From contig CAJINV010000026.1 in NCBI GenBank assembly GCA_905178155.1, positions 132,814-153,455 of the forward strand: a stretch of DNA of 20,642 nucleotides, in the 5' to 3' direction. The notes under the pieces were generated by a model. That model was not told the origin of the DNA and made no database searches. It saw only the letters and a list, made by a program, of their open reading frames with translations. The translations under genes and the position numbers were made by a program. Shown here piece by piece: positions 774 through 20,642 of this stretch. This DNA is from Amoebophrya sp. A120. Taxonomy: Eukaryota > Protista > Dinoflagellata. Position 1 is the stretch's first letter; each line of letters opens with the position of its first letter.

Positions 774-982
774 TATCCAAGAAAAAAACGCTGTTAGTGT
801 AAATTTGTGATGCGCAACACGCAAGCTGATTGCGTCTGTCATGCTTGGCATGCATCATAGGGTCCATTAAAGGGCGTTTTCCCGTACTATCTGCGCATGA
901 CAGGTTTTTGCTGTCATGCCAGACAAATTTGTAATGCTGTTCCTCCAAAAAAGTTACACCTACAATGTTTTTTTCTTGGATA
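774..982. mobile_element. TIR element (family B-like), in the presumed 3' UTR of the large gene
   Basis: Ends TATCCAAGAAAAAAA...TTTTTTTCTTGGATA. Exact direct repeat TCAAC at 769-773 and 983-987. Confidence 0.9.
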
Positions 983-997
983 TCAACTGCAATAATA

Positions 998-3900
998 TTA
1001 CCAGCCAAACTCCCGGTTCTGCGGACCATTTGGGTCGGGCATAAACACCTTCATGACCCCCGTGGGCACGAACCACGTGTCCTTTGGTAGGATGCGGTTT
1101 CCCTGGCACCGACACGAGTGGAGATGCCCGGGGGCCGATATCGATGGAAAAAGCTGTCTTAGTCTACTACTCAAAGAACCTGTGCAAATCCGGCAAGACA
1201 AATTTGCGAAACACGAACACGAGGGAAAGACGTATGAGAGACGACACGACTGTCACTGTCTTGCATCTCCAGCATGACAAAAGCAAAACACTGTCTACTC
1301 CAGGACGAGGGTCTTGCGCATTACAAGTTGAGATTGACCAGAGAATGTTTTCTCTATACGATAGCCGACCGCACGGAAATACTGCGCACGTGGAATCCGC
1401 AGTTGCAATTGTTTCCCGTGATCGTGTATCAAATGCAAATATGTCTGGGTCTGGAAGGAAAAGCAGGATGCATACTTGTAATGCTGCACGTGGATTCTGA
1501 AAAAATCTGTATTGCAGGAGCAGCAAAAGCAGTGCGTTTCTTGCTACACGGGGGGGCATTTCTGATGCAGTATGGGCGTCAGAAAGCCGTCACAATAGCC
1601 GTGATGCTAGAGCATGCATCACAGACATCGCCGGGGATGCAAAATGTGCATGACAAACTTCCCGACCCAGACATATTTGCAGTTGATATCGTGTTATGAT
1701 GCGCTCCATTCGCGTACTTTTCCCACTCCGGGTGCGAAAGCGTCTGGCAATAGAGCGCCATCACCGTGCCCTTGTTGTCCTTCTGTCGCTGCGCCACTGA
1801 ATCAATGTAATTTTGCTTCCGCTCGATTTCCTCCTTGGACAGCTTGAGCTTTTTACCACCGCTATCGAAAGGAAAGACTCCCCCTCCCCATATTGAAAAG
1901 GTATTTTTCCGCAACTTTGTGTTGCTGATTTGAGGTCACAAATCACATTCGTGCTGCAAGAAGACAATGGCAGAAGCTGCCGCCTCATTATGGAAGCCGT
2001 TTGTCATGCTGTTTGGCCTAAAGGGGAGCTGTTTGCCATGCTCGACAACTAGACCCAGGCGCCTGTGCCTAGGCTGGGTATCTGGCCGCAATGCCTTCCT
2101 GCAATACAAAGCGTATTTGTGTACACAAATCCAGCCTCAGAAATTCCGTTTTGATATGGGGAGGGGGGATTTTTCATTTTGATAACCGCGCAGATCGCCT
2201 TTCGCCTCCTCGAGGTCGTCCCAATCTTCATAAGCCGCCCGGTATCAAATGCAGATATGTCTGTTTTACTTTTGTACGGCTACGGCATTACCTGGCTTCC
2301 TTTTTCAGCATGAGAAAAATAAGTAGCGCTTTTGCGCCAAAATGTGGCGAATGGTTTTCACTTCAACTTTTTGCGCCCCACGCGCAAAAGCAAGTGCTTT
2401 GAATCACGAGCGCAATAAGATTCATGTCTCGATATCCGAGGCCCCAAAGACTGTCGCCTAATGAGCAGAAAAAAGCTCGCTTTTGTCTCGCGTATCACGA
2501 CATTATGGCGTGGGACAAATTTCTCCACCAAAATTTGAAAAATCGTTTTCACTTCAACTTTTTGCGCCCGACGCGCAAAACAAAAATCTTTTGAATCACG
2601 AACGGAATCTGATTCAAGTCTCGATACCCGAGGCCCCAAGGACTGCCGCTGAATGAGCAGAAAAAATATTTTTTTTGTCTCGCGTATCACGACGGTATGG
2701 CGGAGGGCAAATTTCTACACCAAAATTTGCAAAGTTGTTTTTAGTTCAACTTTTTGTGCCCCACGCGCAAAAGCAAAATCTTTTGAATCACGAGCGGAGT
2801 CTGATTCTAATCTCGATATCCGAGGCCCCAAGAACTACCGCTTAATGAGCCGAAAAAACCTTTTTTTTGTCTCGCGTATCACGACGGTATGGCGTAAATC
2901 AAATTTCTACGCCAAATTTTGAAATATCGTTTTCACTTCAAGTGTTTGCGCCCCACACGGAAACAAAAAGTCTTTTAAATCACGAGCGGAATCTGACTCA
3001 ATGCTCGATATCGGAGGCCCCAAGGACTGCAGCTTAATGAGCAAAAAAGTCCTCTCTTTTGTCTCGCGTATCACGACGGTATGGCGTAGAGCAAATTTCT
3101 ACACCATAACTTGCAAAGTCGTTTTCACTTCAACTTTTTGCGCCCGACGCGCAAAAAAAATCTTTTGAATCACGAGCGGAATCTGATTCAAGTCTCGTTA
3201 TCCGAGGCCCCAAGGACTGCCGCTCATTGAGCAGAAAAAAGCTCTTTTTTGTCTCGCGTATCGCGACGGTGTGGCGTAGGAAAGATTTCTACGCCAAAAT
3301 TTGAAAAATCGTTCTCACTTCAACTTTTTGCGCCCCACGCGCAAAAGCAAGTGCTTTGAATCACGAGCGCAATAAGATTCATGTCTCGATATCCGAGGCC
3401 CCAAAGACTGTCGCCTAATGAGCAGAAAAAAGCTCGCTTTTGTCTCGCGTATCACGACATTATGGCGTGGGACAAATTTCTCCACCAAAATTTGAAAAAT
3501 CGTTTTCACTTCAACTTTTTGCGCCCGACGCGCAAAACAAAAATCTTTTGAATCACGAACGGAATCTGATTCAAGTCTCGATACCCGAGGCCCCAAGGAC
3601 TGCCGCTGAATGAGCAGAAAAAATATTTTTTTTGTCTCGCGTATCACGACGGTATGGCGGAGGGCAAATTTCTACACCAAAATTTGCAAAGTTGTTTTTA
3701 GTTCAACTTTTTGTGCCCCACGCGCAAAAGCAAAATCTTTTGAATCACGAGCGGAGTCTGATTCTAATCTCGATATCCGAGGCCCCAAGAACTACCGCTT
3801 AATGAGCCGAAAAAACCTTTTTTTTGTCTCGCGTATCACGACGGTATGGCGTAAATCAAATTTCTACGCCAAATTTTGAAATATCGTTTTCACTTCAAGT

Positions 3901-6900
3901 GTTTGCGCCCCACACGGAAACAAAAAGTCTTTTAAATCACGAGCGGAATCTGACTCAATGCTCGATATCGGAGGCCCCAAGGACTGCAGCTTAATGAGCA
4001 AAAAAGTCCTCTCTTTTGTCTCGCGTATCACGACGGTATGGCGTAGAGCAAATTTCTACACCATAACTTGCAAAGTCGTTTTCACTTCAACTTTTTGCGC
4101 CCGACGCGCAAAAAAAATCTTTTGAATCACGAGCGGAATCTGATTCAAGTCTCGTTATCCGAGGCCCCAAGGACTGCCGCTCATTGAGCAGAAAAAAGCT
4201 CTTTTTTGTCTCGCGTATCGCGACGGTGTGGCGTAGGAAAGATTTCTACGCCAAAATTTGAAAAATCGTTCTCACTTCAACTTTTTGCGCCCCACGCGCA
4301 AAAGCAAGTGCTTTGAATCACGAGCGCAATAAGATTCATGTCTCGATATCCGAGGCCCCAAAGACTGTCGCCTAATGAGCAGAAAAAAGCTCGCTTTTGT
4401 CTCGCGTATCACGACATTATGGCGTGGGACAAATTTCTCCACCAAAATTTGAAAAATCGTTTTCACTTCAACTTTTTGCGCCCGACGCGCAAAACAAAAG
4501 TCTTTTGAATCACGAGCGGAATCTGATTCAAGTCTCGATACCCGAGGCCCCAAGGACTGCCGCTGAATGAGCAGAAAAAATATTTTTTTTGTCTCGCGTA
4601 TCACGACGGTATGGCGGAGGGCAAATTTCTACACCAAAATTTGCAAAGTTGTTTTTAGTTCAACTTTTTGTGCCCCACGCGCAAAAGCAAAATCTTTTGA
4701 ATCACGAGCGGAGTCTGATTCTAATCTCGATATCCGAGGCCCCAAGAACTACCGCTTAATGAGCCGAAAAAATCTTTTTTTTGTCTCGCGTATCACGACG
4801 GTATGGCGTAAATCAAATTTCTACGCCAAATTTTGAAATATCGTTTTCACTTCAACTTTTAGCGCCCCACGCGCAAAAAAAAAATCTTTTGAATCACGAG
4901 CGCGATAAGATTCATGTCTCGATACCCGAGGCCCCAAGGCCTGCCGCTTCATGAGGAGAAAAAAGCTTTTTTTTGTCTCGCGTATCGCGACGGTATGGCG
5001 TAGAACGAATTTCTTGCCCAAAGTTTGAAGATCGTTTTCACTTCAACTTTTTGTCACCCACACGCAAAAAAAAAGTCTCTCGAATGACGAGCCAAATCTG
5101 GATCAATGCTTGATATCCGAGGCGCCAGGAAAGCGGTCTCATGAGCAGAAAAATTCCTTGAGGCTTCTCGCGTATCACGGCGGCGTGGCGCAACATAAAT
5201 TCTAATTCCCTCCTACTCCTGCGTTGCATGCATTACAGATCTCGCTGCCTTTCAAATTTCGCATCAGAAATTGAGACCCAGATCGATATTTGCATTGCAT
5301 ACCTCGAGCTCCTGGTTCATTTCTAGCTGCTGCTGCTGGAAGATTCGTACCCCGCACCCGTCATCGACTTGGACTTGCGCATAGGAGTATCTTTGTCCCG
5401 TATCCAGGGAATCCTCTGGCTCGGCGTACCCAATCGAGCCGTCCAAGTCGCCGTGCCCTGACATAATGATTTTCTCGTGGGTCGCGAAAGGGATCTTCTG
5501 AATGCCGCCACGCAGACCCTGGTCTTTCGTGAAGGAGATGATCGTTTTGCCGGGGACTGCACCCTCCGGACCCAAAGGGTACACGCGGCCACCACCTCCG
5601 GGTATCATTCGCGTTTTGTACTGGGCAAGGGCCTCCGCGAGTTTTTCTTTCTGCGGACCAAGGTACCTAGTTGTAAATCACAGAAGCGACTTGAACTTGT
5701 AATGCGTATAATGCGTTGCTCTTGCAAGCCACTGGATTTTGATTTTGATCAGCATTGATGTAAGTATTCTGAGAACAACTGCGCGCATGGTACTAATTCA
5801 TTGACTCATTTATTCCACATGTAGACCTCCACGCAAAGAAGCAAAAGTAGAACCGAAGATGTATAGAGAAAAGGCCTCACCACACGCAGGCCTTTGCCAT
5901 CATGCTCTTCGAGTTGTAAAAGTACTTTATCAATACCCCTTGTCGACACTTGTTATGCCCAATTGTACGAGTTGATTGTAGTCTGCCATGCTCAACCTGC
6001 CTTCCCGCATGTCCAGTATGACATTGCACAACTCCCCCTCCTGTCATTTGTATAGCATGAACGGCATGTGACAAGCATCAGCAAGAAAGCCGGTTTTGCA
6101 TGAGAAATGTACACTGGAGTGTAGTGCAAGTGCTATTTGGGCCGCTACCAGAACTTGTCATGCAAACAGTGCCATAGGGCAACGACTGGAGTCTGGGTTT
6201 TGCATGACAAATGAGGCGGAGGGGGAGTTGCGCACTGTCATATCCAGAGCTGGGTCTTCAAACGGCAGCCCGGCCGCGGTGCCGCCTTCGTTCTCCCAGT
6301 TGGATGCATTGCAAATCTGTCTGGGTCTGGGAACTTCTTGTGATGCAAATTTACAAATTGCGCGGGCGCTGCAATATGCAACCCAGCATGACAAGTTTTT
6401 GCGCTGCTGTGTGTTTCGTTTTTCGCACGACAAACTGCGTGGTTGCATGACAGGCAAGCGGCCCTTTTCCTGCTCATGCATCACAGATTTAAGAGTCACG
6501 CCAGACACACATGACAAACTTGCATTCTTCCAGACCCAGACATATTTGCAATTCATAAGTTGGATGTCATAGCATCTTTCTGCTCGCCCTTGTGGTCAGC
6601 GGCGGTCACGGGCCCGCGTTTTTTCTTTTTTCGGCCCACATTCTTTATCCGGTCCCACATCTTCCCTCCTTTTGATTTCGCATCCTTTTTTTTTCCTCCC
6701 GATTTTTTATTCTCGTCGTGGTCCTTGCTCTTGCTCTTCCCGCGATCCGAGCTTCTGGAACTGCTTTTGCTGCTCCCTCTATTAGAACTCCGGCTGCTGG
6801 TACTCGTTGCTTCAGCTTCGGTATCCCACGAAAAAAGTGTTACAGTTACACATTTGTAGTGAATTCAGCAACACAAATTTCTCTGCATGAGAGAGAAAAC

Positions 6901-9900
6901 TTGTAATGCAGAAATCCTACAGGAAAACACCTATGAAACGAGGATCCGATGCACATCCGGCATGACAGAGCTTGTTTGTCTTGCTTGGCCTGCAACACAA
7001 TGTGTAACTGTAACACTTTTTTCTTGCGATATTCGGCCTCTGGAGCCCCACCCTCATCTCCGCCGGCTTGATCATCTGCGTCGTCTTTGCCGCTACTGGA
7101 AGAACTATTTTTCGTCTTTTTCTCGCTTTTTTTACTACTACTTCCCTTGATCTTGTTAACCAATCCGTCCTTCGCGTCCCTTAACTTTTCTTTTGCGCCT
7201 TTCAACTTTTCTTTCATCACGCTTTTCTTCTCTTTGCTGCTGCTCTTGCTCGTGCTTGTCCCTCTGTTGCTGCTTCTTGTACTGCTCTTGCTGCTAGTAG
7301 ACTGGTCTTCGTTAGTACTATCCTTCGAGCTGCCGCGTCTGCTGCTACCTCTACTGCTGCCTCTGCTGCTACCTCTACTGCTACCTCTACTGCTGCCTCT
7401 ACTGCTTGTTGCAGCTTCGTCTTCATTCTCCTTGTCGCTGCTGCCTCTACTGCTTGTCTTCGAGGAAGACGAGCCTCTCCTCGACGAAGACGAGGAATCT
7501 GCTCTCCTGGATGAAGACGAGGAATCTGCTCTCTTGGATGAAGACGAGGAATCTCTCCTGGATGAAGAGGAGGAGGGCCGCGTGAATGTCTTTTCCGTTC
7601 GTTCGACGTTTTCCTCCAAAAACGCAGGCTGGAGGTCTTCATCTTCCACGAGAGCTACGTCTTCAAGGATTTCATCTACTGCAGCAGGTGGTCCATGATC
7701 TACTTCCTCGTCTGCTTGGTCAGGTCCTCGCTGCTGTCCTAGATTTATTTCTGGCTGGTATTTTTCCGTTTCAACATCTTCCACCAGAAACGACTCTCCT
7801 TGTACAACTTCCTTATCCTTTGTTGAAGATGGCGTAGGATAAAAATCTTTGTCCCCTACTTTCTCTGATACTTCTGCACCAGTATGATCTTCTACCGCCG
7901 CCCCCACGTCGTCTGGTTGGTGTACTTCGGTCCTCTCCCTGGCAGGAACATTTGCATTTGCATGAAGGTGAACATGATCTGTTCCATCGTCGTGCAATAA
8001 ACCATCTTCGTCCACCGTCGTGGTTTGTTTTTCGTTTTCCTCAGCCCGTCGTGAGGGGGAAGAAATTATTCTGTCATCCTCAACCTCCTCCTCAACCTCT
8101 TCATTGAAAACGAAACTGGACTCCGGTAGGGGCTCAGTCGTGTCTACTTCCGGGTCGTCATCTGGCGGAGCAGTACCAGACTCGGTTGTACTAGGATCAT
8201 AACGACCATCGGTTTCTTCTTGTTCTCCACCGTCGTGGTCATATGATCTCCCACGTCGAAACGGTCCCTCGTCATGGTCCTCGTGGTTGTGAAGATGCGC
8301 GTCATCATCTCCATAGAAGTCCTCGTCCTGGTGGTCATCTGCAAGGAAGGAATGATGCGCGCTGTCTCTGACAACATCATTCTCTCCGATTTCGTAGTCA
8401 TGACCGCGTTCTTCATCACCGTCGAGTTCCTCCTCTACTTCTAGCATGCTCTATCAAATGCAAAAATGTCTGGGTCTGGAAACTTGCGATGCTAAAAGTG
8501 AATGGTAGACGGACTGCAGTACGCAGCTATGTATGACAAACTTTTTGGCTCCCATGTCTTACGTATTCCGCATGGCAAACTGCGTTTTTGCATGACAGGT
8601 AAGAGGGCCTTTTCGTGCTTATGCAACGCAGATTCTCGACTCATGCCAGACAAGCATGACAAACTTGCATTCTTCCAGACACAGACATTTTTGCATTTGA
8701 TATGTTCCCGGTTTCGTCAAACGCAAGCGGCTCGTCCTCGTCTTCGCGGAAATATTCCTGTATGAAATGCAAAAGCATCTATACTACGTAGTGATTGCAA
8801 TACAAATTCACTTAGCATGATAAATGAAATCGAGAAGGGTACGCTGTGGGACCTAAAAAGCAACCGCTTCCGCTCCTGTAGCCTCAAAAACCAGCGCGGC
8901 CGCCGGAGAGTACTCCCCTCGTGATTGGCCTTGTAAATGTCACGCGATTTGCATCGTGTGGCGACGCAGTCCGCCCGTGATTGTGCTTGCTTTGAGGAAG
9001 CGTTTCAAAACAACACAAAAAACGACCGAAGTGGCCGAGTCCCGTGCTGTTTGCCGCCGGATTTGGGGGCGCGGCAAACCGGCGCACATTTTGCGCGGCA
9101 GTCCTCTGGCCCAATTTGGACCGCCCCGGGCGACCTTCCCCCGGTCTACCTCGATTTCGGGGGAGGATTCCGCAGAGGATTCCGGAGAGGATTCCAAAAT
9201 CCTCTCCGGAATCCTCTGGCCCAAGTTGAGCCGTGTTTCGCGCCCTTTCCCCGACGGCACGGCCTCGATTTCGGGGGAGGATTCCACAGAGGATTCCGGA
9301 GAGGATTCCAAAATCCTCTCCGGAATCCTCTGGCCCAATTTGGGCCGTCTTCCGCGCCCTTCCCCCGATGGCACTGCCCCGATTTCGGGAGAGGATTCCT
9401 CAGAGGATTCCTCAGAGGATTCCAAAATCCTCTCAGGAATCCTCTGGCCCAATTTGGGCCGTCTTCCGCGCCCTTCCCCCGATGGCACTGCCCCGATTTC
9501 GATCGGGAGAGGATTCCACAGAGGATTCCTCAGAGGATTCCAAAATCCTCCCAGGAATCCTCTGGCCCAATTTGGGCCGTCGGTCTTCCGCGCCCTTCCC
9601 CCGATGGCACGACCTCGGTTTCGGGGGAGGATTCCACAGAGGATTCCGGGGAGGATTCCAAAATCCTCTCCGGAATCCTCTGGCCCAAGTTGAGCCGTCT
9701 TTGGCGCGCGCCCTTTCCCCGACGGCACGACCCCGATTTCGGGGGAGGATTCCGCAGAGGATTCCAAAATCCTCTCCGGAATCCTCTGGCCCAAGTTGAG
9801 CCGTCTTTCGCGCCCGTTCCCCGACGGCACGACCTCGATTTCGGGGGGGGATTCCACAGAGGATTCCGGAGAGGATTCCGAAACCCCCTCCGGAATCCTC

Positions 9901-12900
9901 TGACCGGATTGGCGCCGTCCTTCGCGGTCTTTCCCCGGCGGCACGGCGTCGATTTCGGGAGGGGATTCCGGAGAGGATTCCTCCGGAGCCCTTTCTCCCG
10001 TGGTACGCACTACCTCATCCGGGAGGATTTCCCCGGGGACATGGCGGACCCCCCGAAGCGAGGGCGGACCCCCCGGGGGCGAGGGTGGATCCCCCGGAGA
10101 ACGGGCGGATCCCCGGAAAGCGGGCGGATCCCCCGGAGAACAGGTGAATCCCGCGGGAAGCCGGCGGATCCCCGGGGAACGGGCGGATCCCCGGGAAGCG
10201 GGCGGATCCCCGAGTAGCGGGCGGATCCCCGAGTAGCAGGCGGATCCCCAGGGCGAAGGCGGATCCCCGGGGAGCGGGCGGATCCTCGGGGCGCGGGCGG
10301 ATCCCCGGGGAACGGGCGGATCCCCGGGGAACGGGCGGATCCCCGAGTAACGGGCGGATCCCCTGGGCGAAGGCGGATGGATCCCCTGGGCCAAGGCGGA
10401 TCCCCGGGAAGCGGGCGGATCCTCGGGGGGCGGGCGGATCCCCTGGGGGAAGGCGGATCCCCGGGGAGCGGGCGGATCCCCGGGGAATGGGCGGAGGGAT
10501 TCCCTGCGCGAAGGCGACTCCCCGGGGAGTGGGCGGATCCCCTGCGCGAAGGCGGATCCCCGGGGAATGGGCGGGCTCCTGGGCGAAGGCGGATCCCCGA
10601 GTAACGGGCGGATCCCCTGCGCGAAGGCGGATCCCCGGGGAATGGGCGGGCTCCTGGGCGAAGGCGGATCCCCGAGGAACGGGCGGATCCCCTGGGCGAA
10701 GGCGGATCCCCGGGGAATGGGCGGGCTCCTGGGCGAAGGCGGATCCCCGGGGAACGGGCGGGTCCCCGGGAAGAGGGCGGATCCCCGGGAAGAGGGCGGA
10801 TCCCCGGGGAAGTTGGCGGATCCCCGGGATGAGGGCGGATCCCCGGGGGCGAGGGCGGATCCCCGGGGAACGGGCGGATCCCCCGGTCGAGGGCGGATCC
10901 CCTGGTCGAGGGCGGATCCCCGGGGAGCGGGCGGATCCCCGCGGGCGAGGGCGGATCCCCCGGAGAACGGGCAATCTGTTTCACGGGCGATATACGTGCT
11001 CCACGGTATTTAATTTCCCACAAAATAACAAGCAACCTTCGTAGTTCCGTCGTGTTTCGCGTTTTAGGTCTCAGAGCGTACCGGTCTCATGAAATTTGTC
11101 ATGCTGATTTGCCTTAGCAACGAGATTTGGAATGTATGACTGCGATTTTTACTACGAGTACGATACTTTTGCACAGGATATCCTGCTCGTCCAGCGGCTG
11201 GTCGTGGTAAACGATGTGACTTTGATCTTCTGCATCGTCATCCAGATTCATTTCCATCCCGTCGCCGGGAGCCGGGCTGTTGTACGTACCTGCTTCAACT
11301 CGGTGGTCATCGTCTTCGCGGCCCATATTTTCATCCTCATCGCCGTAGTCTCTGTCGTCATGATGATCTTCTAGGTCCGCATACTCCAGAAACCGCTCGT
11401 CTTCGTCTTCCTCTGTGTTGTCTGCTCTGTACATGATCCTTCGTGCTGGCAGCTCTGGCTGTAGTTCTTGATCTTGATCATCCACCGTCGGTAGTTCCTG
11501 GTCTCCTTCGTCGAAGAATACGTCTTCGTTGATTTCGGGAAAGTTTTCTAGCAAGGCTTGCTCCGGGTGGAAGTCTTCTTCATCTTCATCTTCTCCTGGT
11601 GCATCTACCGCACTACCTTCTTCAAAAAACTCGTCGTCCTTGTTCGGTGCAACTGGGAAGTGGTTCTCCTGCAGTTCGCGGTCGTGGAACTCATCGTCAT
11701 TTTCATCGACGCTGGCCAACATCTTCTCCTGATTTTTCTCACCCTGCTCTGTAATTTTCCTCTGGTCAATCTGTAAAAAATCCTCGCCACTTGGCGACAT
11801 TGTCCCGACTCCAGCCTGCGCCGGAGCAGCTTTATTTCCCATATCGATTTCTTTCTGCACCAGCATCGGATGCACTTCCGGTACCCCGGTGCTGCGCCAG
11901 AGGTGCCTCTCGGTGCCGTCTTTCATTTTTACTACCACCCTCTCCTATCAAATGTAAAAAGTGTCTGGGTCTGGAAGAATGCAACTTGTGATGCTGCGTC
12001 TGCATTATCCAAAAATCTGTATTGCATGAACAGCAAAAGAGGTCTAGTTTTGGCCACGGCGAGAGGGCATTTCTCATGCGGTATAGGCACAAGAAAGCCC
12101 TCACAAGATCTGCGATGCTAGGGCATGCATCGTAGACATCAGGAGTCACGCAAAACGTGCATGACAAACCTTGCATCCTTCCAGACCCGGACATTTTTGC
12201 ATTTGATATCTCCGCGAAGTCTGGGTGGATAGTATCCCTTGAAAAAACTGCTTCACTCTGAGGTGTGATGATTTTGCAAGATCTGCATCACAAGTTTGTT
12301 AATACACATGACAAAGAAAACTTGGCATGCGTGCTTCCTAAAGGAAGAACACACAGCTAGAAATCCAATGTCTTGCATGTGTAGCAACACAAACAAACTT
12401 GCATTCCGTTCTATGCATCACAAGTTTGCAGTGAAGCAGTTTCAGTTTTTTCTTACGATAGATGAGGCCGCTTCGGTAATCCGGATGATCTTCGTCCCAG
12501 AAATCAGGGTGGAGCGCGTATTATGCGTAGCAAAAATGTCTGGGTCTGGGAAGTTGCAACTTGTAATGCTGTCTTTGAATTCCAAAAAAATCTGTATTGC
12601 ATGACCAGCAACGGGGGTCCAGTTTGTCTTACGTGGAAAGGGCATTTGCATTTCTCATGCGGAATGGGCATTAGGAAGCCCTGTAAAGAAAAAGATCTGT
12701 GATGCTAGGTCATGCATTACAGGCATCAACATCATGGATCATACGAGATATGCATGACCAACCTGGCAACTTTCCAGACCTAGACATATTTGCATTTGAT
12801 ACGTATAATTTGCCTGACGCCGCGTGGAGGTTTTCTGCTCCCTCTACTGGTGCATCTACTAGTGCTTCACCGTCGTTATTCGCTTGTTGCAAGAAAGAGC

Positions 12901-14030
12901 TTTGTTGTTCTACTGGCGGTGGTGGTTCTTTTCTTTCAAAAGACGTTGCGCCGTCTACGTGCTTTGAAGATGAAGATGACGACAAAGCCGCCTGCGCCTC
13001 CCTATCGTCGTCCGGTGAGACAAAACCGTTCCCAACACCCAGCCGCTCATCATAGTCATCGCTGACATCGTATCCCAAGAAAAAAGTGTATACAGTTACA
13101 CATTTGTTCGAGTTTCTGCATCACAAATTTTCTCTGTGTGGCAGGCACAACTTGTAATGCAAAGATCATAAGGGAAAACAGAAAGGAAACGAGCCTCCCA
13201 AGCATTTCCTGCATGAGAAAGGTTGTCTCTGTTGCTGGTCTTGCATCATAATGTGTAAGAACTGTAACACTTTTTTCTTGCGATACACCCAGCCGCTCAT
13301 CATAATCATCGCTGACATCGCCCTCCGGTTCTACTACGGAGGAAGATAGGAGGTTTTGATCGGCTTGTGAAGCAGAAGCATAGTCGTCTGGTGATGTCGC
13401 GGCTTGACCTCCGCTACTATTTGTTCCGTGGTCACCGTTTCTTCCCTTCACCGTGTCCAGCTGCGTCCAGAAAAGGAAAAGGAGGAGAAACATCCAGTAA
13501 AAGCCGTTTCGGACAAGCAAGATTGGTTTCAATTGCGATAGGAGGTAATAGTGGTGAAAAACTACCCGGTCGGTTTTTCCTGTTTTCGTTTTTCGCCTCG
13601 CTCGGTTGTGTGCGTAGATTTTGCTGGTGGAGGAAAGAGGTGGTGCTGCAGACTTTTTCAAATTTGCGATCGTCGACAAGGAAATAAATGATTGGCGCTC
13701 GTCTTTTTCGGAATCAGGTGAGGCGGAAGCTGTACTGTCGCTGGACCTGAAACAGGACGCGGACGATGTTGGAAAAAGACTCTGTATGCCGCATGGCTGC
13801 ACTTGTTTTTGTCTTCCCGAGCACCACTTGTGGCCCGTGTATGATCCGGCGTGCTTGGGTGGTGACGTTGACGAAGAAGAGGGTGTCGCGGGAGATGCAG
13901 GTACAACTAACCGAAATTGAATCCGCTCTCCGAATGGTGTTTCTGCAAACGCGGCGGTCGGCTTTCTTGGAGGAACACCTCCGTCGACACCACCTGCACC
14001 ACTAGGCACGGTCGCCATTGCGCTGGCCAT
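998..14030 (-). CDS. Large 15-exon protein of unknown function (~1483 aa). It has a hydrophobic TM/signal-like segment near aa 165-190, long D/E-rich and S/R/K-rich low-complexity regions, and a Cys/His-containing C-terminus.
   Basis: Manual splicing, counting each direct repeat once. Exons: 14030-13286, 13035-12802, 12516-12461, 12227-12209, 11940-11181, 8755-8703, 8446-7032, 6816-6558, 6297-6243, 6011-5937, 5666-5302, 2237-2185, 1857-1689, 1421-1364, 1133-998. Total 4452 nt (divisible by 3), no internal stop, ends TAA. It links ORF-track fragments 13056..14030, 12710..13078, 11114..11938, 6846..8447, 5264..5608, 1579..1914 and 998..1201. Junction peptides read sensibly, e.g. GKLYALHPDFWDEDHPDYRSGLIHPDFAERVVVKMKD, DEQEYFREDEDEPLAFDETGNMLEVEE, NQELEAAYEDWDDLEEAKGDLRGGKKLKLSKEE. 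The start codon is uncertain. Confidence 0.85.
1139..1363. mobile_element. Degenerate TIR element / non-canonical intron
   Basis: Ends TATCG...CGATA with a weak TIR. Exact direct repeat GCCGA at 1134-1138 and 1364-1368. Removal restores the frame (VRS-APGHLH). Confidence 0.8.
1427..1688. mobile_element. TIR element family A / non-canonical intron
   Basis: TATCAAATGCAAATATGTCTGGGTC...GACCCAGACATATTTGCAGTTGATA. Direct repeat TCGTG. Confidence 0.95.
1863..2184. mobile_element. TIR element family C / non-canonical intron
   Basis: TATCGAAAGGAAAGACTCCCCCTCCCCATAT...ATATGGGGAGGGGGGATTTTTCATTTTGATA. Direct repeat ACCGC. Confidence 0.92.
2243..5301. mobile_element. Giant family-A TIR element / intron (3059 bp) containing a satellite array
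   Basis: Left end TATCAAATGCAGATATGTCTG; right end GACCCAGATCGATATTTGCATTGCATA. Flanks CCCGG/CCTCG match 3/5. Removal plus 5 nt keeps the frame (ELE-AAYEDWDD). Confidence 0.8.
2354..5205. repeat. Satellite of ~15 monomers of ~191-192 bp, organised as a 957-bp 5-mer higher-order repeat
   Basis: CACTTCAAC-like anchors at 2359, 2550, 2742, 2934, 3126, 3316 ... 4273 ... 5039. Near-identical ORF translations recur at 2358/3315/4272 and 2653/3610/4567 (period 957). Confidence 0.97.
5667..5936 (-). other. Canonical GT-AG intron (270 nt)
   Basis: Minus strand AAGGG|GTATTG...TTTACAACTAG|GTAC. Splicing gives in-frame SVDKGYLGPQKEKLAEALAQYKTRM and avoids an immediate TGA. Confidence 0.75.
6017..6242. 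mobile_element. TIR element (family C-like) / non-canonical intron
   Basis: TATGACATTGCACAACTCCCCCTCC...GGAGGGGGAGTTGCGCACTGTCATA. Direct repeat TCCAG. Confidence 0.93.
6303..6557. mobile_element. TIR element family A / non-canonical intron
   Basis: GATGCATTGCAAATCTGTCTGGGTCTGG...CCAGACCCAGACATATTTGCAATTCATA. Direct repeat AGTTG. Confidence 0.92.
6822..7031. mobile_element. TIR element family B / non-canonical intron
   Basis: TATCCCACGAAAAAAGTGTTACAGTTACACATT...AATGTGTAACTGTAACACTTTTTTCTTGCGATA. Direct repeat TTCGG. Confidence 0.95.
7330..7575 (-). repeat. Coding tandem repeats, (SSRG)n and SSSSRR(A)D
   Basis: 12-bp units CTACCTCTACTG and ~27-bp units CTGGATGAAGACGAGGAATCTGCTCTC lie inside the 8446-7032 exon. 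Confidence 0.9.
8452..8702. mobile_element. TIR element family A / non-canonical intron
   Basis: TATCAAATGCAAAAATGTCTGGGTCTGGAA...TTCCAGACACAGACATTTTTGCATTTGATA. Flanks TGCTC/TGTTC match 4/5. Confidence 0.95.
9103..9990. repeat. Tandem repeat, ~8 copies of ~106-118 bp, with 12-bp subrepeats and an internal palindrome
   Basis: CCTCTG anchors at 9103, 9213, 9327, 9441, 9559, 9677, 9783, 9897, with GAGGATTCC subunits. Confidence 0.95.
10020..10972. repeat. GC-rich minisatellite, ~20-21-bp unit GGGCGGATCCCCGGGGAAC, roughly 45 copies
   Basis: GGCGGATCCCC recurs continuously across the interval. Confidence 0.95.
11946..12208. mobile_element. TIR element family A / non-canonical intron
   Basis: TATCAAATGTAAAAAGTGTCTGGGTCTGGAAG...CTTCCAGACCCGGACATTTTTGCATTTGATA. 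Direct repeat TCTCC. Confidence 0.95.
12233..12460. mobile_element. TIR element (family B-like) / non-canonical intron
   Basis: TATCCCTTGAAAAAACTGCTTCACT...AGTGAAGCAGTTTCAGTTTTTTCTTACGATA. Flanks GATAG/GATGA match 3/5. Removal gives GLI-HPDFAE. Confidence 0.87.
12522..12801. mobile_element. TIR element family A / non-canonical intron
   Basis: TATGCGTAGCAAAAATGTCTGGGTCTGG...CCAGACCTAGACATATTTGCATTTGATA. Direct repeat CGTAT. Confidence 0.93.
13071..13285. mobile_element. TIR element family B / non-canonical intron, flanked by a 35-bp duplication
   Basis: TATCCCAAGAAAAAAGTGTATACAGTTACACATT...GTAACACTTTTTTCTTGCGATA. 13036-13070 and 13286-13320 are identical at 34/35 positions. Confidence 0.93.
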
Positions 14031-16029
14031 GGCTCGCGGGGTGGGGAGCAGCCCGCGCTCCCACCCGCTTCATGCGTGGTTACCACGGCAAAGCTGCCCT
14101 CATCACGAAGGAGGCATGGTTTTGAAAGGCGGTTCTCTGCGCTCCATCGGTGCGGACCGCAGGGACGGTTGGTCTGTTCGTGGTCCTCGCAAATGAGTGC
14201 CGCTTATTAGCTTTGTGACAACTCCCTCGAAGCGAGACACATACAACAGCAAAACAGGCAAGGCTGCCCCTCAAACTGTACAGATGGGGATCGCGCGTTT
14301 CCTCTCAGGCGCTCGGGTGAGAAAGAGGCCTGTTAAAGCAGGCGCTGGGGCACTGCCGCTGCAACAGAAAGGCAAGAAGCCTCGCCCCGAAGGAAAACAT
14401 CGGCGCGCCAGCCTATCCCCTCGTCCGTTCTCGCACACATCGTCTCACTCCCTCCACTCACTTCGGGCTCGGCTGGCCGTGACGAAAACAATGCCACGAG
14501 CGGGTGGCGCGCGTGCTTCATCGCGCTCCGCAAGAAGTTCTTCTATCTGTACTGGTAAAACGGGCCACTTTATATAGCAGCAATGCATGCTTTTGGCGCC
14601 CGGGCCAATTCTGGCGCGGGCGGCGGCGGGAGAGCTGCGCCATTGATTATTCCACCTCGCCCGGGCAACCCACAAACGTGGGAAGAAAAGCCGGGGCTCG
14701 CGTGCCCCCCCGGCCGCCACCAAACCGCCCGGCGCGGGCCTTCGGGAATGAATAGCGGGGGGGGGGTTCGCCTCGGACGGCCGCCGATTCGCATGGCGCA
14801 GGCCGTTCTCTTTTTAGCGCGCCGGCAGGCCCACGGAGGCCCCCGGCAAACGGGGGCCAAGAATTCGGCGCCGGGGCTAGCCGCGCACCGGCGCGGCCGC
14901 TCGCTGTGCCCGCGCGTTTTCTAGCTCTGCGGCGAAGAATGAAGGGGCGGCGGGACCGTGACGGGGCGGCCCGCTTCGTGTTCGCGCCGTACGCTTCCGC
15001 ACCAGTGCGACCGCTTTCATCCGCTTCCACTTGCCACAAAGGGCGGCCGGTGCTGCGGCAGCTTCAGCGCTTCACTTGCGCGCCTGCGGGCCGGCGCGCT
15101 TCCTTGGGTGGCGTAGGCCGCGCACTTCAAATTCGCGTTTGCCAGAGGACCGCCTCAGACCCGCGCCCGTTTCTGCGCGAGCTGCGCGACTACGGTGCGA
15201 TCCCTGGAAGGGGGCGGCGGCTGAACCTTGTTACGGAAACCCGAGCCGCGCGCCATGATGCTCTTCAACCGGTCTTGTAGTGGATACACCTAATACAGGC
15301 TGGCTTTCGTCCACTGATGTGCTTGGAACTGGATGCACATCTAGATCTAGTGCGGAGGACCCGCATCAAAATCTATTGCTCGTTCACTTAGAGTGCCCTC
15401 CAACTCAATGGCCACTCTTCTCAGTGCTGATTTCCCTAACGCAATTCCTCCGCAGTATATCCTCTTCCCTAATCTTTCAAGACGTAAAATGTAGAACTCT
15501 TCCCCTTCTCTACCCTCTTCCACTCCTGTTAAATCAGGTCTCCACACACGACATTACAGGAATCTTACGCAGGACTCCATCGGAAAATCGCGCTTGGTGC
15601 CGATGTTAAGATTAGAAAAAAATCTGATCTGGGGACGATTGAGAAGACCGAACAGCGCACAAGAATACATGTTGCCAGGAAGCACTTGCACGGTGGCAGC
15701 GAGAGCTTTCATAGTGTACTAGTTGTAAGTATTTTCTGTTCGCGTTCTTTGCCGGAAGTTGCTGTTCGTTTTTGTCGGAAGTTGCTGTATGTACAGTGTT
15801 AATTTCCATCCAACAATATATACGCGTTGACGGTCTTGCTCGTTGAAGTATTCATTGTGCATAGAGAGACAATGATTTTTACATTTAATTTCGAGTAGTA
15901 CGTACGAGATAAATTTTGATTCTGTAAAGAGTTTCTGTAAAAAAAGCTTTTCGTTAAATCTGTAAGCTGTTGTTGTTCTTTTTCATTTTCAGCGCTTTTT
16001 CATTTTCCAACCACCACTTCACTTCCACC

Positions 16030-17613
16030 CTATTCCTTGCCGCTATCCAGTGAAATAAATACATCAGGATCACAAGAAAAGCTGCGTACTTTGTACCACG
16101 CTGATGTTGCTGTTGTACCAATAGGGCATAACAAGTGTGTTGCGTTTTTCTTGTGACTCTGAAGAAATATTTTCATCAGATAAAACATCTCGCCCTGTAA
16201 AGCCGCCACCGCCCTTCGCCGCTCCCTATCAAATGTAAAAATGTCTGGGTCTGGAAGAGTGCGCGATTTGTCATGCAGCTTTTCCATGATCCATGAGGTC
16301 TGGAATGCAGGACCTAGCATGACAGATTCTGTGCGATCTTTCTCATGCCTATTCTGCATGAGAAACTGCCTCCCGACTTGGTTAAAACTGGACGACTTTT
16401 GGTAATCATGCAACACAGATTTTTGCATGCTGCAGATTTAGCATGACAAGTCGCATTCTTCCAGACCCAGACATTCTTACATTTGATACTCCCGGATGGA
16501 TTGCAATTTCACCATCTGTTGCTCCATCGCATCTATCGCCTCCTTCTCGTCCTTATCAAATGCAAAAATGTCTGGGTCTGGATGATTCCGGGATTTGTCA
16601 TGCTAGTCCGGCATGGCTCTGAGCTCTGTATTGCGTGGCCGCAAAGGGCTTCTCTTGCCTGTCATGCAGAAACGCAGTTTCTCATGCGGAGTACGCAACT
16701 CTGCACCACGGAAAAACTTGTCATGCTTGGCAGTGCATTACAGTATGCGCATTTTTCCCTGGCTTGCATCACAAGTTTCCAGACCCAGACATTTTTGCAT
16801 TTGATAGTCCTTGGCCAACTGCTGGTCGAGATTGTAGTTCAAGTGGACTTCGTTCAGTATCTCCGCTGCCTTCAGCGGATTGTTTTCGACGTTGGTGGCA
16901 ATACTGTATCAAGGTCGAGACATTTCCTATCCCAGTATCGCTGTTCACGTACATGCCTTTGTAGCCCAACATGTGACCAGCAGCCAAGGACTATGGCTTA
17001 GCTATTTCGTAGCGAAATGCGGATGTTGGTGCACCGTGAGAAGATGGCGTCTTCCGCGGATTATTTTGCGTGTGTTTCATGATCACATTCCGGAAGCGCC
17101 AACTCACTTTGTTTTTGCGGAAGCAAAAAGTATACAAATTTGTCAATGGAAATGGCTGCCGCACAGACAGAAGGAAAGAGCTCTTTTCGCGAACAACCGC
17201 ATGCCACGAATGCTGGGATCGGACTATTTTCAAGCTGACACCTTTTCCTGCACACGCATCGAAACCTGCACGTTGTCCTCCGCGACGGGGAGCATGTTAC
17301 CCCGGAGCTTCGCCCGTCGCTCTGCGCGGCGCCTTGTGTTCTCCATGCGCTCTGTTGATCAATAGTTCGCTTGATTCATACATAACTTCAACTATCTCGA
17401 ATCGAGCTCATAATTATGGTCGACTATTCATTCAACATCATATTTATTCTTCAACCGCCGCATCAACATTAATAAATTTCTTCGCACAAAAAAAAAGTAA
17501 GTACTTTTTTTATCCTTCTCGGACTCCTCTCGTTTCTGTGTCGTTTTGGCGCCGAACTTGGCTGTGGTAGAAGAGCTGCCTGTCGAACTCGATCCGATTT
17601 TTGGGGGGAGCAT
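16030..17613 (-). CDS. Small charged, probably coiled-coil protein (~140 aa) of unknown function; may extend further 5'
   Basis: Exons 17613-17505, 17351-17241, 16901-16807, 16548-16489, 16221-16183 and 16038-16030 total 423 nt in frame: MLPPKIGSSSTGSSSTTAKFGAKTTQKREESEKDKKKRMENTRRRAERRAKLRGNMLPVAEDNVQVSMRVQEKVATNVENNPLKAAEILNEVHLNYNLDQQLAKDEKEAIDAMEQQMVKLQSIRERRRAVAALQGEMFKE*. The first and last junctions are less certain than the middle ones. Confidence 0.7.
16044..16182. mobile_element. Probable short decayed TIR element / intron
   Basis: TATCCAGTGAAATAAATACATCAGGATCACAAGAAAA resembles the reverse complement of the right end, TATCTGATGAAAATATTTCTTCAGAGTCACAAGAAAA. There is no intact direct repeat. 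Element plus 5 nt is 144 nt (frame-neutral), and read-through is also open. Confidence 0.55.
16227..16488. mobile_element. TIR element family A / non-canonical intron
   Basis: TATCAAATGTAAAAATGTCTGGGTCTGGAAGA...TCTTCCAGACCCAGACATTCTTACATTTGATA. Direct repeat CTCCC. Confidence 0.95.
16554..16806. mobile_element. TIR element family A / non-canonical intron
   Basis: TATCAAATGCAAAAATGTCTGGGTCTGGA...TCCAGACCCAGACATTTTTGCATTTGATA, a perfect 29-bp TIR. Direct repeat GTCCT. Confidence 0.96.
16907..17240. mobile_element. Decayed TIR element / intron
   Basis: TATCAAGGTCGAGACATTTCCTATCCCAGTAT resembles the reverse complement of the right end, TGTCAGCTTGAAAATAGTCCGATCCCAGCAT. The direct repeat is lost, but removal plus 5 nt gives in-frame VQEK-(V/I)ATNVENN. 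Confidence 0.65.
17352..17504 (-). other. Canonical GT-AG intron (153 nt), AT-rich
   Basis: Minus strand AAAAAAA|GTACTTAC...ATCAACAG|AGCGCATG. Splicing gives in-frame EKDKKKRMENT. Confidence 0.65.
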
Positions 17614-19239
17614 GTAGCGTCCCCGGCGAATAATGCAGAGACAAGATGTGGGACAAGAACCCAATTCAAACCTGGAGTCTTCGACTTAGAGTCTGTAACT
17701 GTACGAACATGCACTGAAGTCGTTGAATGACACATGATTGGCTGCTACATTGCAGCTGTTGTCGTTCTATCTCGTTTTGAAATTCTTTCTGCAACGAGCC
17801 CGGTTGTCAGCCACGGCGCACCGTTGGAAATACTTACGATACAAATGGCGCATGTGGCTTTTGCTTTCTTTCATGCAGACAATATACGGCTCGCAGTATA
17901 ATCGCGATGATCGGTTGTTGACCCATGAATGTTCGGAGATATCGACGTCCGGTAGCGCCTTGCTGCTGGAACTGAGTATCAGACTTCAAAATACCGCCAT
18001 TTTCGCATATTCTAAGCTGGAACAATCAAGGTTCTCAATACCGCAAAACGTATTATGCCTTGTTTCGGGGCGGCAAGACAGTGCATAATCATGACAAGTT
18101 TCAAAGAGATAAACTCAACAATGGCGAACGGAATTCGTACCAAGTGACCAACTTTGCCTTTCTGTGAATATGCGGGGGCTGGACCCGGTATTTGTGCTTG
18201 ATAACCAAGTTGAAGCTCGTGTCTTGATCTGTTGTTGAAAGTTGAAAAGTTCGGTTGAAAAATTATTTATTACACAGTTCCATAAATAGCACGGGCCGAC
18301 GGATAGTCATCTTTCAGGATCGAGTCAATCATTATCATCTTTTCTCCCTCCATATCCATTCTCGTAGCACAGGATCACGAAACAACAAAATCACAATCAG
18401 ACCAAGAAGCAGTAGTTAGAATACAACTGAGCGACGAGACGGTGCTGACAGTGGAGATCGGGGACTGCAGAACCTCTTGCTCTTTTTCCTGCTCTCCGCG
18501 GAAAAGGTCCCACACTGTGGTCCCGTTCCATTTCGGGACAGGCGGCAGATGATGTGGTCGCTTGTCCATGTTCCCTCCTTCTCAAGCAATGAACAACCAC
18601 AACGCGCTGCTATTGATTACGACGAAAAAAAATGGAAAACGCTACGTATCTATTAGCGCCATATTCTGTTCATACAGTTTGGTAAAAGAATTCAGGTAGA
18701 CTGCGTCACCAACGCGAAAAGGAAAAGGTAAGGGGCGGCTTTTATTTTCGCTTCACATATTGCAAAATAAAAGTGATCTCGACATACATAGCGCGAAAAC
18801 GACAGCACGACGGGCGAGAGTAGACCGACGACAACTCAAACGGATACTCGATACGATTCGAAGATAAGTGCGCCATCTCTTCGTAGCAACGCACGATCAG
18901 ACGCGCCCGTGACACCGAGGGCCAGTACGTCGACACCAAGGCCCGAAAAAGAACAAACGGAATCCGCGTCGAAAAGACTACTTTAATGAAACTAAGTAAA
19001 AATCAATAGGAATAAACAACGAGCTCGACGACCACGACTTCGTGTAACGATCACGACGAACTTCTACTCTCAACCACTGCTCCCACGGGAAATCGTGTTG
19101 GCTCTTAAGCATGCGCGTGCAACCATCACTACTGCCAAAAACTCCGCGACTTATTATCCAAACCCTCCATCGTCGGACTTTATTGGAGCGGTGACGGGCG
19201 GCATTGGCATTGCGGCGTCGAGCATCGTTATACACTCCG

Positions 19240-20642
19240 CGGCTTTCGCTGCCTCGGCTTTCGCTGCTTTCTTGGGTCGTGTCCAGTGGAGACTGGACAG
19301 CCCCAAACCCGGGCGCCCGTGTGTGCGTCTCAGCGGGGCGACCTGCTTCGGCTTTCGCTGCTCTCTTGGGTCGTGTCCAGCGGAGACTGGACAACCCCAA
19401 GCCCGGGCATCTTTGTGCGCGTCTCAACGGGGCGAACTGCCTCGGCTTTCGCTGCTTTCTTGGGTCGTGTCCAGTGGAGACGGGACAACCCCAAACCCGG
19501 GCGCCCGTGTCTGTGCGCGCCTCAGCGGGGCGAACTGCCTCGGCCTTCCTTCGCTGCTCTCTTGGGTCGTGTCCAACGGAGACTGGACAACCCCAAGCCC
19601 GGGCATCCTTGTGCGCGTCTCAACGGGCGGGGCGAACTGCCTCGGCTTTCGCTGCTTTCTTAGGTCGTGCCCAGTGGAGACTGGACAACCCGAAACCCGG
19701 GCACCCGTGTGCGCGTCTCAGCGGGGCGAACTGCCTCGGCTTTCGCTGCTCTCCTGGGCCGTGTCCAACGGAGACCGGACAACCCCAAGCCCGGGCATCC
19801 TTCTGCGCGTCTCAACGGGCGGGGCGAACTGCCTCGGCCTTCGCTGCTTTCTTGGGTCGTGCCCAGTGGAGACTGGACAGCCCCAAACCCGGGCGCCCTT
19901 GTGGGTGCGCGTCTCAGCGGGGCGAACTGCCTCGGCTTTCGCTGCTCTCTTGGGTCGTGTCCAGCGGAGACTGGACAACCCCACGCGGGCACTCTTGTGC
20001 GCGTCTCAACGGGGCGAACTGCCTTGGCTTTCGCTGCTAGCTTTCTCGGGTCGTGTCCACCGGAGACTGGACAGCCCCAAACCCGGGCGCCCTTGTGCGC
20101 GTCGCAACGGGGCGAACTGCCTCGGCTTTCGCTGCTCTCTTGGGTCGTGGGTGCCCAGTGGAGACCGGACAACCCCAAACCCGGGCGCCCCTGTGCGCGG
20201 CTCAGCGAGCGGGGCGAACTGCCTCGGCGTCCGCTGCTCTCTTGGGTCGTGGGTGTCCAGCGGAGACTGGACAACCCCAAGCCCGGGCATCCTCGTGCGC
20301 GTCTCAACGGGGCGAACTTCCTCGGCTTTCGCTGCTCTCTTGGGTCGTGGGTGTCCTGTGGAGACTGGACAGCCCCAAACCCGGGCGCCCGTGTGCGCGT
20401 CTCAACGGGGCGAACTGCCTCGGCTTTCGCTGCTCTCTTGGGTCGTGTCCAGCGGAGACCGTACAACCCCAAGCCCGGGCATCCTTGTGCGCGTCTCAGC
20501 GGGGCGAACTGCCTCGGCTTTCGCTGCTTTCTTGGGTCGTGTCCAGCGTAGACTGGACAACCCCAAGCCCGGGCGTCCTTGTTCGCGTCTCAACGGGGCG
20601 AACTGCCTCGGCTTTCGCTGCTTTCTTGGGTCGTGTCCAGTG
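19240..20642. repeat. GC-rich satellite with a ~94-100-bp monomer, ~15 copies, truncated by the window end
   Basis: CCTCGGCTTTCGCTGCTYTCTTGGGTCGTGTCCAGYGGAGACTGGACARCCCCAARCCCGGGC...GGGGCGAACTG recurs from ~19252 to the end. Confidence 0.97.

Follow-up and report, generated by a model that had tools for sequence, protein, structure and literature searches.

The introners of Amoebophrya sp. A120 have been described, in the accessible part of the original report, as non-coding, non-canonical introns of many families, with inverted repeats that start with TAT, seven variable bases and three or more A, and with direct repeats of 3-5 nucleotides (nt); the position of their borders was left unknown there (Farhat et al. 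2021, PMC7789003). According to the available passages of a later survey, A120 families are spread over several classes: family 38 is assigned to 'Ginger' (about 808 bp, TA/TA termini, a 5-bp target-site duplication (TSD), and open reading frames (ORFs) partly homologous to Copia/Gypsy), and most other families are classed as 'TIR DNA, unknown', TIR standing for terminal inverted repeat (Gozashti et al. 2025, PMC12130899). Here we analyse a stretch of 20,642 nt of A120 (contig CAJINV010000026.1, positions 132,814 to 153,455), hereafter the window, whose elements are A120-type introners: they are spliced as non-canonical introns, have TIRs that start with TAT and repeats at their borders, and belong to repeated families without an internal transposase. 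Different families share an internal 9-bp word, TTGTVATGC, with a preferred distance of 31-33 nt between copies in the same direction. That different families have kept both the word and this spacing points to a single recognition code, likely one that is read on DNA.

On both strands of the window, TTGT[ACG]ATGC occurs in 27 exact copies, against a mean of 0.53 and a maximum of 4 in 500 dinucleotide shuffles. These 27 copies have C, G or A at the variable base, N; two others have T. All but one of the exact copies lie inside TIR elements (26), the remaining one being inside the canonical intron 5667-5936. The exact word is present in 15 of the 16 young elements, at a density of 6.8 per kb, and element 2243-5301 has copies with one mismatch only. 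A first-pass annotation of this sequence had seen no copy in exons, and indeed the RNA-supported exons (5,307 nt) contain no exact copy and a single N=T variant, TTGTTATGC, near 5950; the satellites (6,157 nt) have no exact copy. The 20 positions listed in that annotation are real (19 exact, one, 16765, off by 1), although the list was incomplete, as 5697, 6338, 6386, 8654, 12285, 12415 and 16718 were missing from it. The extended consensus of the word is A-T-T-T-G-T-V-A-T-G-C-A, and when near-matches are included there are 2.0-7.4 sites per element (14 groups). A strict paired-motif pattern had no match in the window, this pattern being tighter than the motif matrix, which does list pairs.

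To widen the sample, we scanned for the commonest element end, that of family F0, and obtained 150 loci of one assembly (~620 kb non-redundant). In these loci we defined 345 elements by their ends and an exact 5-nt TSD, without use of the motif (offset controls gave 0-4), and 323 of them carry the exact word; among copies found by homology, the TSD is exact in 336 of 454. Clustering of the 345 elements with 18 window elements, motif and ends being masked, gave 47 clusters. The word was the top gapped word of a de novo search, in 40 of the 47, and in the six largest clusters it is found in 162/167 (F0), 36/40 (F1), 29/31 (F2), 25/30 (F3), 29/30 (F4) and 11/11 (F5) members. Recent common descent does not explain this sharing, because masked profiles barely match across families: cross-family expectation values (E) were 9e-5 or worse, compared with 1e-17 to 1e-82 within families, and the closest families, F3 and F5, show weak homology (E ~1e-4). 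The first-pass annotation was thus right that the word is common to differing families, which fail to align once it is masked (its families A, B and C were left undefined, and we assume them to be F0, F3/F5 and F1), and we found neither a lack of enrichment nor a recent common descent that would explain all copies, the two outcomes it had set against its own idea. No orthologous insertions were found between the window and the wider loci, and the element-end pattern had no match in collections of viral contigs and genome contigs. An RPB1 gene in one of the wider loci (L057) has alveolates as its best named matches (62-64%), below a top match at 86%; the loci are taken to belong to an A120-type host from their fit to the published end motif and family lengths.

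The feature that recurs among the copies is their distance, which is new relative to the first-pass annotation. Of 14 groups, 11 have a direct pair 31-33 nt apart; its weight of 8.8, against a null of 1.6, was reached by none of 3000 random layouts, or by 2 of 3000 when any 3-nt window was allowed; the 14 groups were merged by hand and leave out the four old introns of the window. Among 241 held-out motifs without homology to the elements used before, the distance to a same-direction partner is 31-33 nt in 46 of 104 cases, where 5 are expected, or in 18 of 63, where 3 are expected, when counted by cluster. TAT...ATA elements with an exact TSD contain 73 of these held-out motifs (controls 1-3), and most of the 73 are in families that lack the AAA box following the variable bases of the terminal repeat. 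The smallest elements (109-122 nt) consist of two ends and two sites, the two being in the same direction in 8/8 cases and 32 nt apart in six.

Other arrangements are family-specific. The first-pass annotation had described the copies as often forming inverted pairs just inside the TIRs, which holds mainly for the largest family, F0 (107 of 167 members); in other families copies are direct or outward-facing: F2 has six copies, all in the same direction, and F4 has outward-facing ones. A second arrangement was seen in F3, F4 and small groups, with two outward-facing sites 17-18 nt apart followed by an inward-facing site 16 nt on. We dropped two further geometries: a strict helical phase for every site, counted from the ends, for which the signal was weak, and an alternating inverted lattice at ~16 nt, of which there is just a faint inverted copy in mid-spacer that outscores the two flanking controls in 7 of 11 groups.

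The word is also retained selectively. Between subfamily consensuses its eight fixed positions are 95-98% identical, compared with 58-73% in the rest of the interior and 47-71% at the N position, a contrast that may be somewhat inflated, as sites were set on one consensus per pair and alignments can anchor on them. Fixed contacts plus one free position would be the pattern expected of a protein site. The word and its spacing might instead be a passive relic of one ancestral element behind all families, with no current function. Such a relic would fit the TAT ends and 5-nt TSD common to all families, the weak F3-F5 homology, the mid-spacer inverted copy, and a spacer identity between groups that is slightly above chance, at only 0.34. 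We regard this as hardly credible and largely refuted, because common ancestry explains the origin of the word and not its selective retention at fixed positions, which were kept while adjacent bases and N drifted to 47-73%.

The fate of the word after insertion was followed with TSD mismatch as age marker, in 424 homology-found copies with at least 3 of 5 TSD matches (30 were dropped). Where the TSD is mutated, motif mismatches stand at 79/1585 (0.050), up from 168/5921 (0.028; p = 5e-5), and background mismatches rise from 0.064 to 0.089 over the same contrast. The TAT terminus, whose mismatch rate is 0.012-0.03 in homology-found copies, shows no significant rise (0.012 to 0.019, p = 0.29). 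This decay is a modest indication that the word is required for mobilisation and unconstrained once the element has been inserted.

Copies of the word are indifferent to the strand of the host gene. With the coding strand of the loci taken from purine skew, which agrees with the Pfam-defined strand in 10 of 10 loci, we counted 192 sense and 228 antisense copies (209 of 344 elements passing three orientation criteria). This count bears on whether the word is an RNA signal, GCATNACAA acting as branch point (T-N-A-C resembling yUnAy) at both ends, or copies pairing to close a hairpin. Such a role would suit the F0 sense copy 32-41 nt from the 3' end, as well as the sense copy in one of the three canonical introns (5667-5936), ~30 nt before AG, a branch-like distance; moreover, motif bases are paired somewhat more in predicted folds (0.67-0.81 vs 0.61) and whole elements fold well (z -10.0 and -3.9). 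Nevertheless, in oriented homology-found copies (354 of 454) an intact sense copy at the 3' end, in branch position, was seen in 143 of 210 cases, compared with 153 of 200 for the antisense copy at the 5' end, and the putative branch A is mismatched more often in sense (0.082) than in antisense copies (0.065). None of 18 oriented F4 elements has a copy in branch position, and this family is inserted both ways (34:26). The exact word is missing from 2 of 3 canonical introns and from 3 of the 4 spliced old non-canonical introns, one of which has no matrix match at all, and the N base matches between both terminal copies in just 29 of the 107 inverted pairs of F0. The branch-point reading was dropped, given the lack of sense-strand bias, a branch A that is not better kept and spliced introns without the word; pairing between copies was dropped on the N bases, which are not complementary between ends, and on a motif-to-motif pairing probability of 0.11 in F2. 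An RNA signal is very unlikely, and a splicing role of the word is not supported. The RNA excision factor offered as an option in the first-pass annotation is not supported either, on the same grounds, three RNA-supported non-canonical introns having no exact copy.

The signal likely for splicing is set apart from the word and lies in the ends of the elements. The 16 young window elements have TAT...ATA ends and are mostly flanked by a 5-nt TSD. They leave the RNA as element plus 5 nt: all 12 young elements examined, and 4 older ones, have a joint or a loose end in spliced contigs. These contigs come from one sample of one study (runs X1-X4) and their RNA status is a guess, yet canonical GT-AG introns are skipped exactly in them; two regions of the window were compared, and the elements at 774-2184 lie outside these and are predicted introns only. 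Raw RNA runs (X8-X10) gave 7, 3 and 2 partial reads and were uninformative. The four older non-canonical introns without TSD (16040-16183, 16903-17241, 17628-17942 and 17973-18204) all have their borders 1 nt before TAT and 4 nt after ATA, two of them with a single altered base in one terminus; this -1/+4 register also fits every ambiguous splice joint of the window. As read from the sequence, the three canonical introns begin GTAT, GTAC and GTAT, in the same register as the non-canonical ones. The elements have the terminal inverted repeat form TAT, seven variable bases and three or more A, and some TAT-ended families lack the AAA box (6017-6242 in the window, further families in the wider loci). 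Complementarity between the ends falls off after ~30 nt, the TIRs being ~14-30 nt long, and target-site composition is flat, with no target preference seen. Loci such as L013 and L020 hold families of ~230-250 and 306-314 nt that are TAT-ended, without AAA box, and have the motif and the 31-33 nt pair. Element 13071-13285 is flanked by a 35-nt duplication (13036-13070 and 13286-13320), but only the element plus 5 nt is spliced out, leaving an in-frame repeat of 10 residues; here splice sites track the element ends, not the direct repeat.

Because of its breadth across families, selective retention, pair spacing and strand indifference, we read the word as the likely double-stranded DNA binding site of one mobilising protein complex, shared by all families, that would copy or move them, with a probability of about 0.6. 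What we infer from these observations is that the word is bound, what binds it and how transposition proceeds. With about three helical turns between the two sites, a pair of protomers would sit on the same face of the helix beside an end; the TAT terminus would be the point of strand cutting, and insertion with a 5-nt stagger would follow. The 5' splice site would take its positions +2 to +4 from the same TAT, which would allow each new insertion to be spliced out, the TAT ends then setting the splice register. The internal pair would in this way be the signal for mobility. The enzyme might perhaps be a DDE transposase resembling integrases, a kind suggested by published family 38 with its TA/TA termini and 5-bp TSD. 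At a little less than even odds, the ~30,000 A120-type introners (17% of the genome, ~1,950 published families) would be one transposon system, with a single undescribed TA-end, 5-bp-TSD transposase reading TAT and the TTGTVATGC pair, and with TAT doubling as 5' splice-site core, which would make every jump a seamless intron.

Several observations weigh against a shared mobilising complex. The offset and direction of the first site from the end vary by family (31-35, 39-43 or 54 for inward sites, 33-48 for outward ones), helical phasing from the ends is weak, with p 0.02-0.03 in one direction and no signal in the other, and the direct pair could be an inherited cassette. Age decay is significant in F0 only (non-F0 p = 0.097, the background there not rising either), and matrix-site counts are steady with TSD age (0.88, 0.89 and 0.86). 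F0 is over-represented in the sample through the scan that built it, and the branch-like copy of intron 5667-5936 stands on the same side. In the part of the text available to us, no transposase was reported in A120, and general transposase-driven mobilisation was ruled out on that ground (Farhat et al. 2021, PMC7789003). The shared-binder idea of the first-pass annotation survives in so far as a DNA-binding mobilising protein would be the best reading of the word; the transposase it named was not found. The long ORF-bearing partner element that it proposed to look for did not appear with these ends in the ~620 kb of non-redundant loci, none of 7 long TSD-flanked candidates in the loci had both convincing ends and a transposase-like ORF, and a Pfam scan of 100 of 391 long ORFs returned no transposase or integrase. 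At L015:2635-6090, a C-5 cytosine DNA methylase domain is split across two adjacent long ORFs.

Part of this evidence would suit a host DNA-binding or chromatin protein that binds the word after insertion, for example recruiting the splicing machinery in transcription or shielding the element, so that carriers are tolerated in genes. A site of that kind would be equally strand-indifferent at the DNA level, and it would agree with the missing transposase, the steady site counts and the free direction relative to the ends. Three spliced old introns persist, however, without an exact copy, one without any matrix match; the per-base decay with insertion age is near background; and the word is nearly absent outside the window elements, the intergenic stretch at 14.3-15.7 kb having one matrix match of 9.5 or more. 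We consider a host protein unlikely and prefer the shared mobilising complex.

The features of the window are collected in Table 1.

Table 1. Elements, introns and genes of the window, with motif sites (in brackets, distance in nt between the sites of a direct pair)
Feature	Position	TSD	Motif sites	Remarks
TIR element, F3	774-982	TCAAC	805, 836 (31, direct pair), 929	downstream of predicted gene 1 stop
TIR element, single-member family	1139-1363	GCCGA	1193, 1272, 1318	frame kept on removing element plus 5 nt
TIR element, F0	1427-1688	TCGTG	1476/1507 (31), 1560, 1616/1648 (32)	predicted intron
TIR element, F1	1863-2184	ACCGC	1917, 2001/2033 (32), 2101/2134 (33)	predicted intron
TIR element with 192-nt satellite array (~2330-5200)	2243-5301		2308, 5230/5261 (31)	spliced whole; loose end joins 5302 to 2237
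Canonical GT-AG intron	5667-5936		one sense GCATTACAA (plus-strand 5697)	copy ~30 nt before AG
TIR introner without AAA box	6017-6242	TCCAG	6048, 6098, 6155, 6202	spliced as 231 nt
F0 introner	6303-6557	AGTTG	6338, 6386, 6425, 6445/6478/6509	spliced as 260 nt
F3 introner	6822-7031	TTCGG	6868, 6885, 6901, 6960, 6976	spliced as 215 nt
F0 introner	8452-8702	4/5	8484, 8531, 8570, 8590, 8623/8654 (31)	spliced as 256 nt
Introner, F4-like ends, 114-nt and 19-nt satellites	8761-11180	TCCTG	8797, 8815, 11096	spliced whole; loose end joins 8760 to 11186
F0 introner	11946-12208	TCTCC	11986/12017 (31), 12071, 12110, 12159	
Micro-exon, 14 nt	12214-12227			between two introners
F5 introner	12233-12460		12285, 12322, 12384/12415 (31)	
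F0 introner	12522-12801	CGTAT	12561/12592 (31), 12652, 12697, 12752	spliced as 285 nt
F3 introner flanked by 35-nt duplication	13071-13285		13118, 13152, 13211	spliced as element plus 5 nt (220 nt)
Older TAT...ATA non-canonical intron	16044-16182 (intron 16040-16183)	none	one N=T copy, one 1-mismatch copy	
F0 introner	16227-16488	CTCCC	16268, 16317, 16356, 16410/16441 (31)	spliced as 267 nt
F0 introner	16554-16806	GTCCT	16595, 16659, 16679, 16718, 16766	spliced as 258 nt
Older non-canonical intron	16903-17241		none at <=1 mismatch	spliced
Older non-canonical intron	17628-17942		none at <=1 mismatch; one weak matrix match, 17868	spliced
Older non-canonical intron	17973-18204		one 1-mismatch antisense copy (18089)	spliced
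Host gene 1	998-14030			1,506-codon stop-free frame after intron removal; acidic, low-complexity
Host gene 2	15730-18631			spliced contig of 998 nt with a 215-codon frame; 8 introns, 2 of them canonical and 6 non-canonical

Both frames restored by intron removal are on the minus strand, as are the canonical intron 5667-5936, the micro-exon and the older introns 16903-17241, 17628-17942 and 17973-18204, and no Pfam family was found above cut-off in the five exon ORFs of gene 1 that were scanned. Two introners have satellite arrays inside them, with 192-nt units in a 5-unit higher-order repeat (2243-5301) and with 114-nt and 19-nt units (8761-11180), and the loose ends of spliced contigs show that they are removed whole, as introns of 3.1 and 2.4 kb. 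The micro-exon between two introners is retained in a spliced contig. Another tandem array (19227-20642, units of 94-102 nt) is motif-free and outside any recognised element.

Some older sequences of the window may preserve earlier stages. The canonical intron 5667-5936 has a 4-nt direct repeat at its borders besides its motif copy, and is possibly an old introner turned canonical. The old element 17977-18203 has an inverted internal word of its own, CGCATATTC, ~28-29 nt from each end, which is perhaps an earlier version of the code. Exon 5946-5968 has 15 consecutive bases, including the N=T variant of the motif, in common with the reverse strand of old intron 16044-16182 (16113-16137), by chance or as an exonised fragment.

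Among known transposons, several subterminal transposase sites are found in hAT Ac/Ds and CACTA En/Spm and, with a 5-bp TSD, in Mu, Tn7 and IS21; Galileo reportedly has multiple subterminal transposase sites as well. The TSD is 8 bp in hAT and 2-3 bp in CACTA. Like hAT/CACTA-type elements, those described here combine a short terminal signal with several internal motif copies, in either direction, that are kept by non-autonomous derivatives; unlike them, they have a 5-nt TSD and TAT ends and also act as spliced introns. We know of no cognate transposase for them. The motif further recalls the Sox2-Oct4 composite site, the RAG signal sequences and ApiAP2 sites, resemblances that we take to be probably coincidental.

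Ginger/TDD elements in general have, in the consulted part of their description, a 4-bp TSD (5-bp in TDD-4/5), TIRs of 40-270 bp and CCGG or RTATAY targets, and Ginger2/TDD has TGTNR termini, TIRs of 50-180 bp and a preference for RTATAY (Bao et al. 2010, PMC2836005). The 5-nt TSD of our elements is like that of TDD, whereas their ends are TAT and not TGTNR, their TIRs are shorter and their target composition is flat. An autonomous partner with a Gypsy-integrase-like transposase, as expected of Ginger/TDD, was not seen in the wider loci, among whose long ORFs 100 of 391 were scanned. From the passages available, family 38 shares its TA/TA termini and 5-bp TSD with the elements studied here, which differ from it in being short (109-330 nt as against 808 bp) and non-coding, a comparison made by description only; like them, it lacks the TGT ends of Ginger, and it is the best lead for the mobilising enzyme (Gozashti et al. 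2025, PMC12130899). The A120 family lengths listed in the same passages (~107, 149, 209, 252-261, 278 and 305-321) match groups found here, and the term 'subterminal' is absent from them.

No description of the shared motif or of its spacing was found in the searchable literature, subscription papers, theses and the figure logos of PMC7789003 (Figs S19-S25) being outside reach, and the motif is a real feature of a known element class that is apparently undescribed. Compared with the A120 introners of PMC7789003, for which the accessible text gives terminal repeats only and no internal motif across families, an internal word with fixed pair spacing here links families, AAA-less ones included, and the borders fit a single -1/+4 register. 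The elements themselves are already published; the word and the pair spacing are apparently the new part, and they provide a concrete probe for protein pull-down and a signature by which an autonomous element may be recognised.

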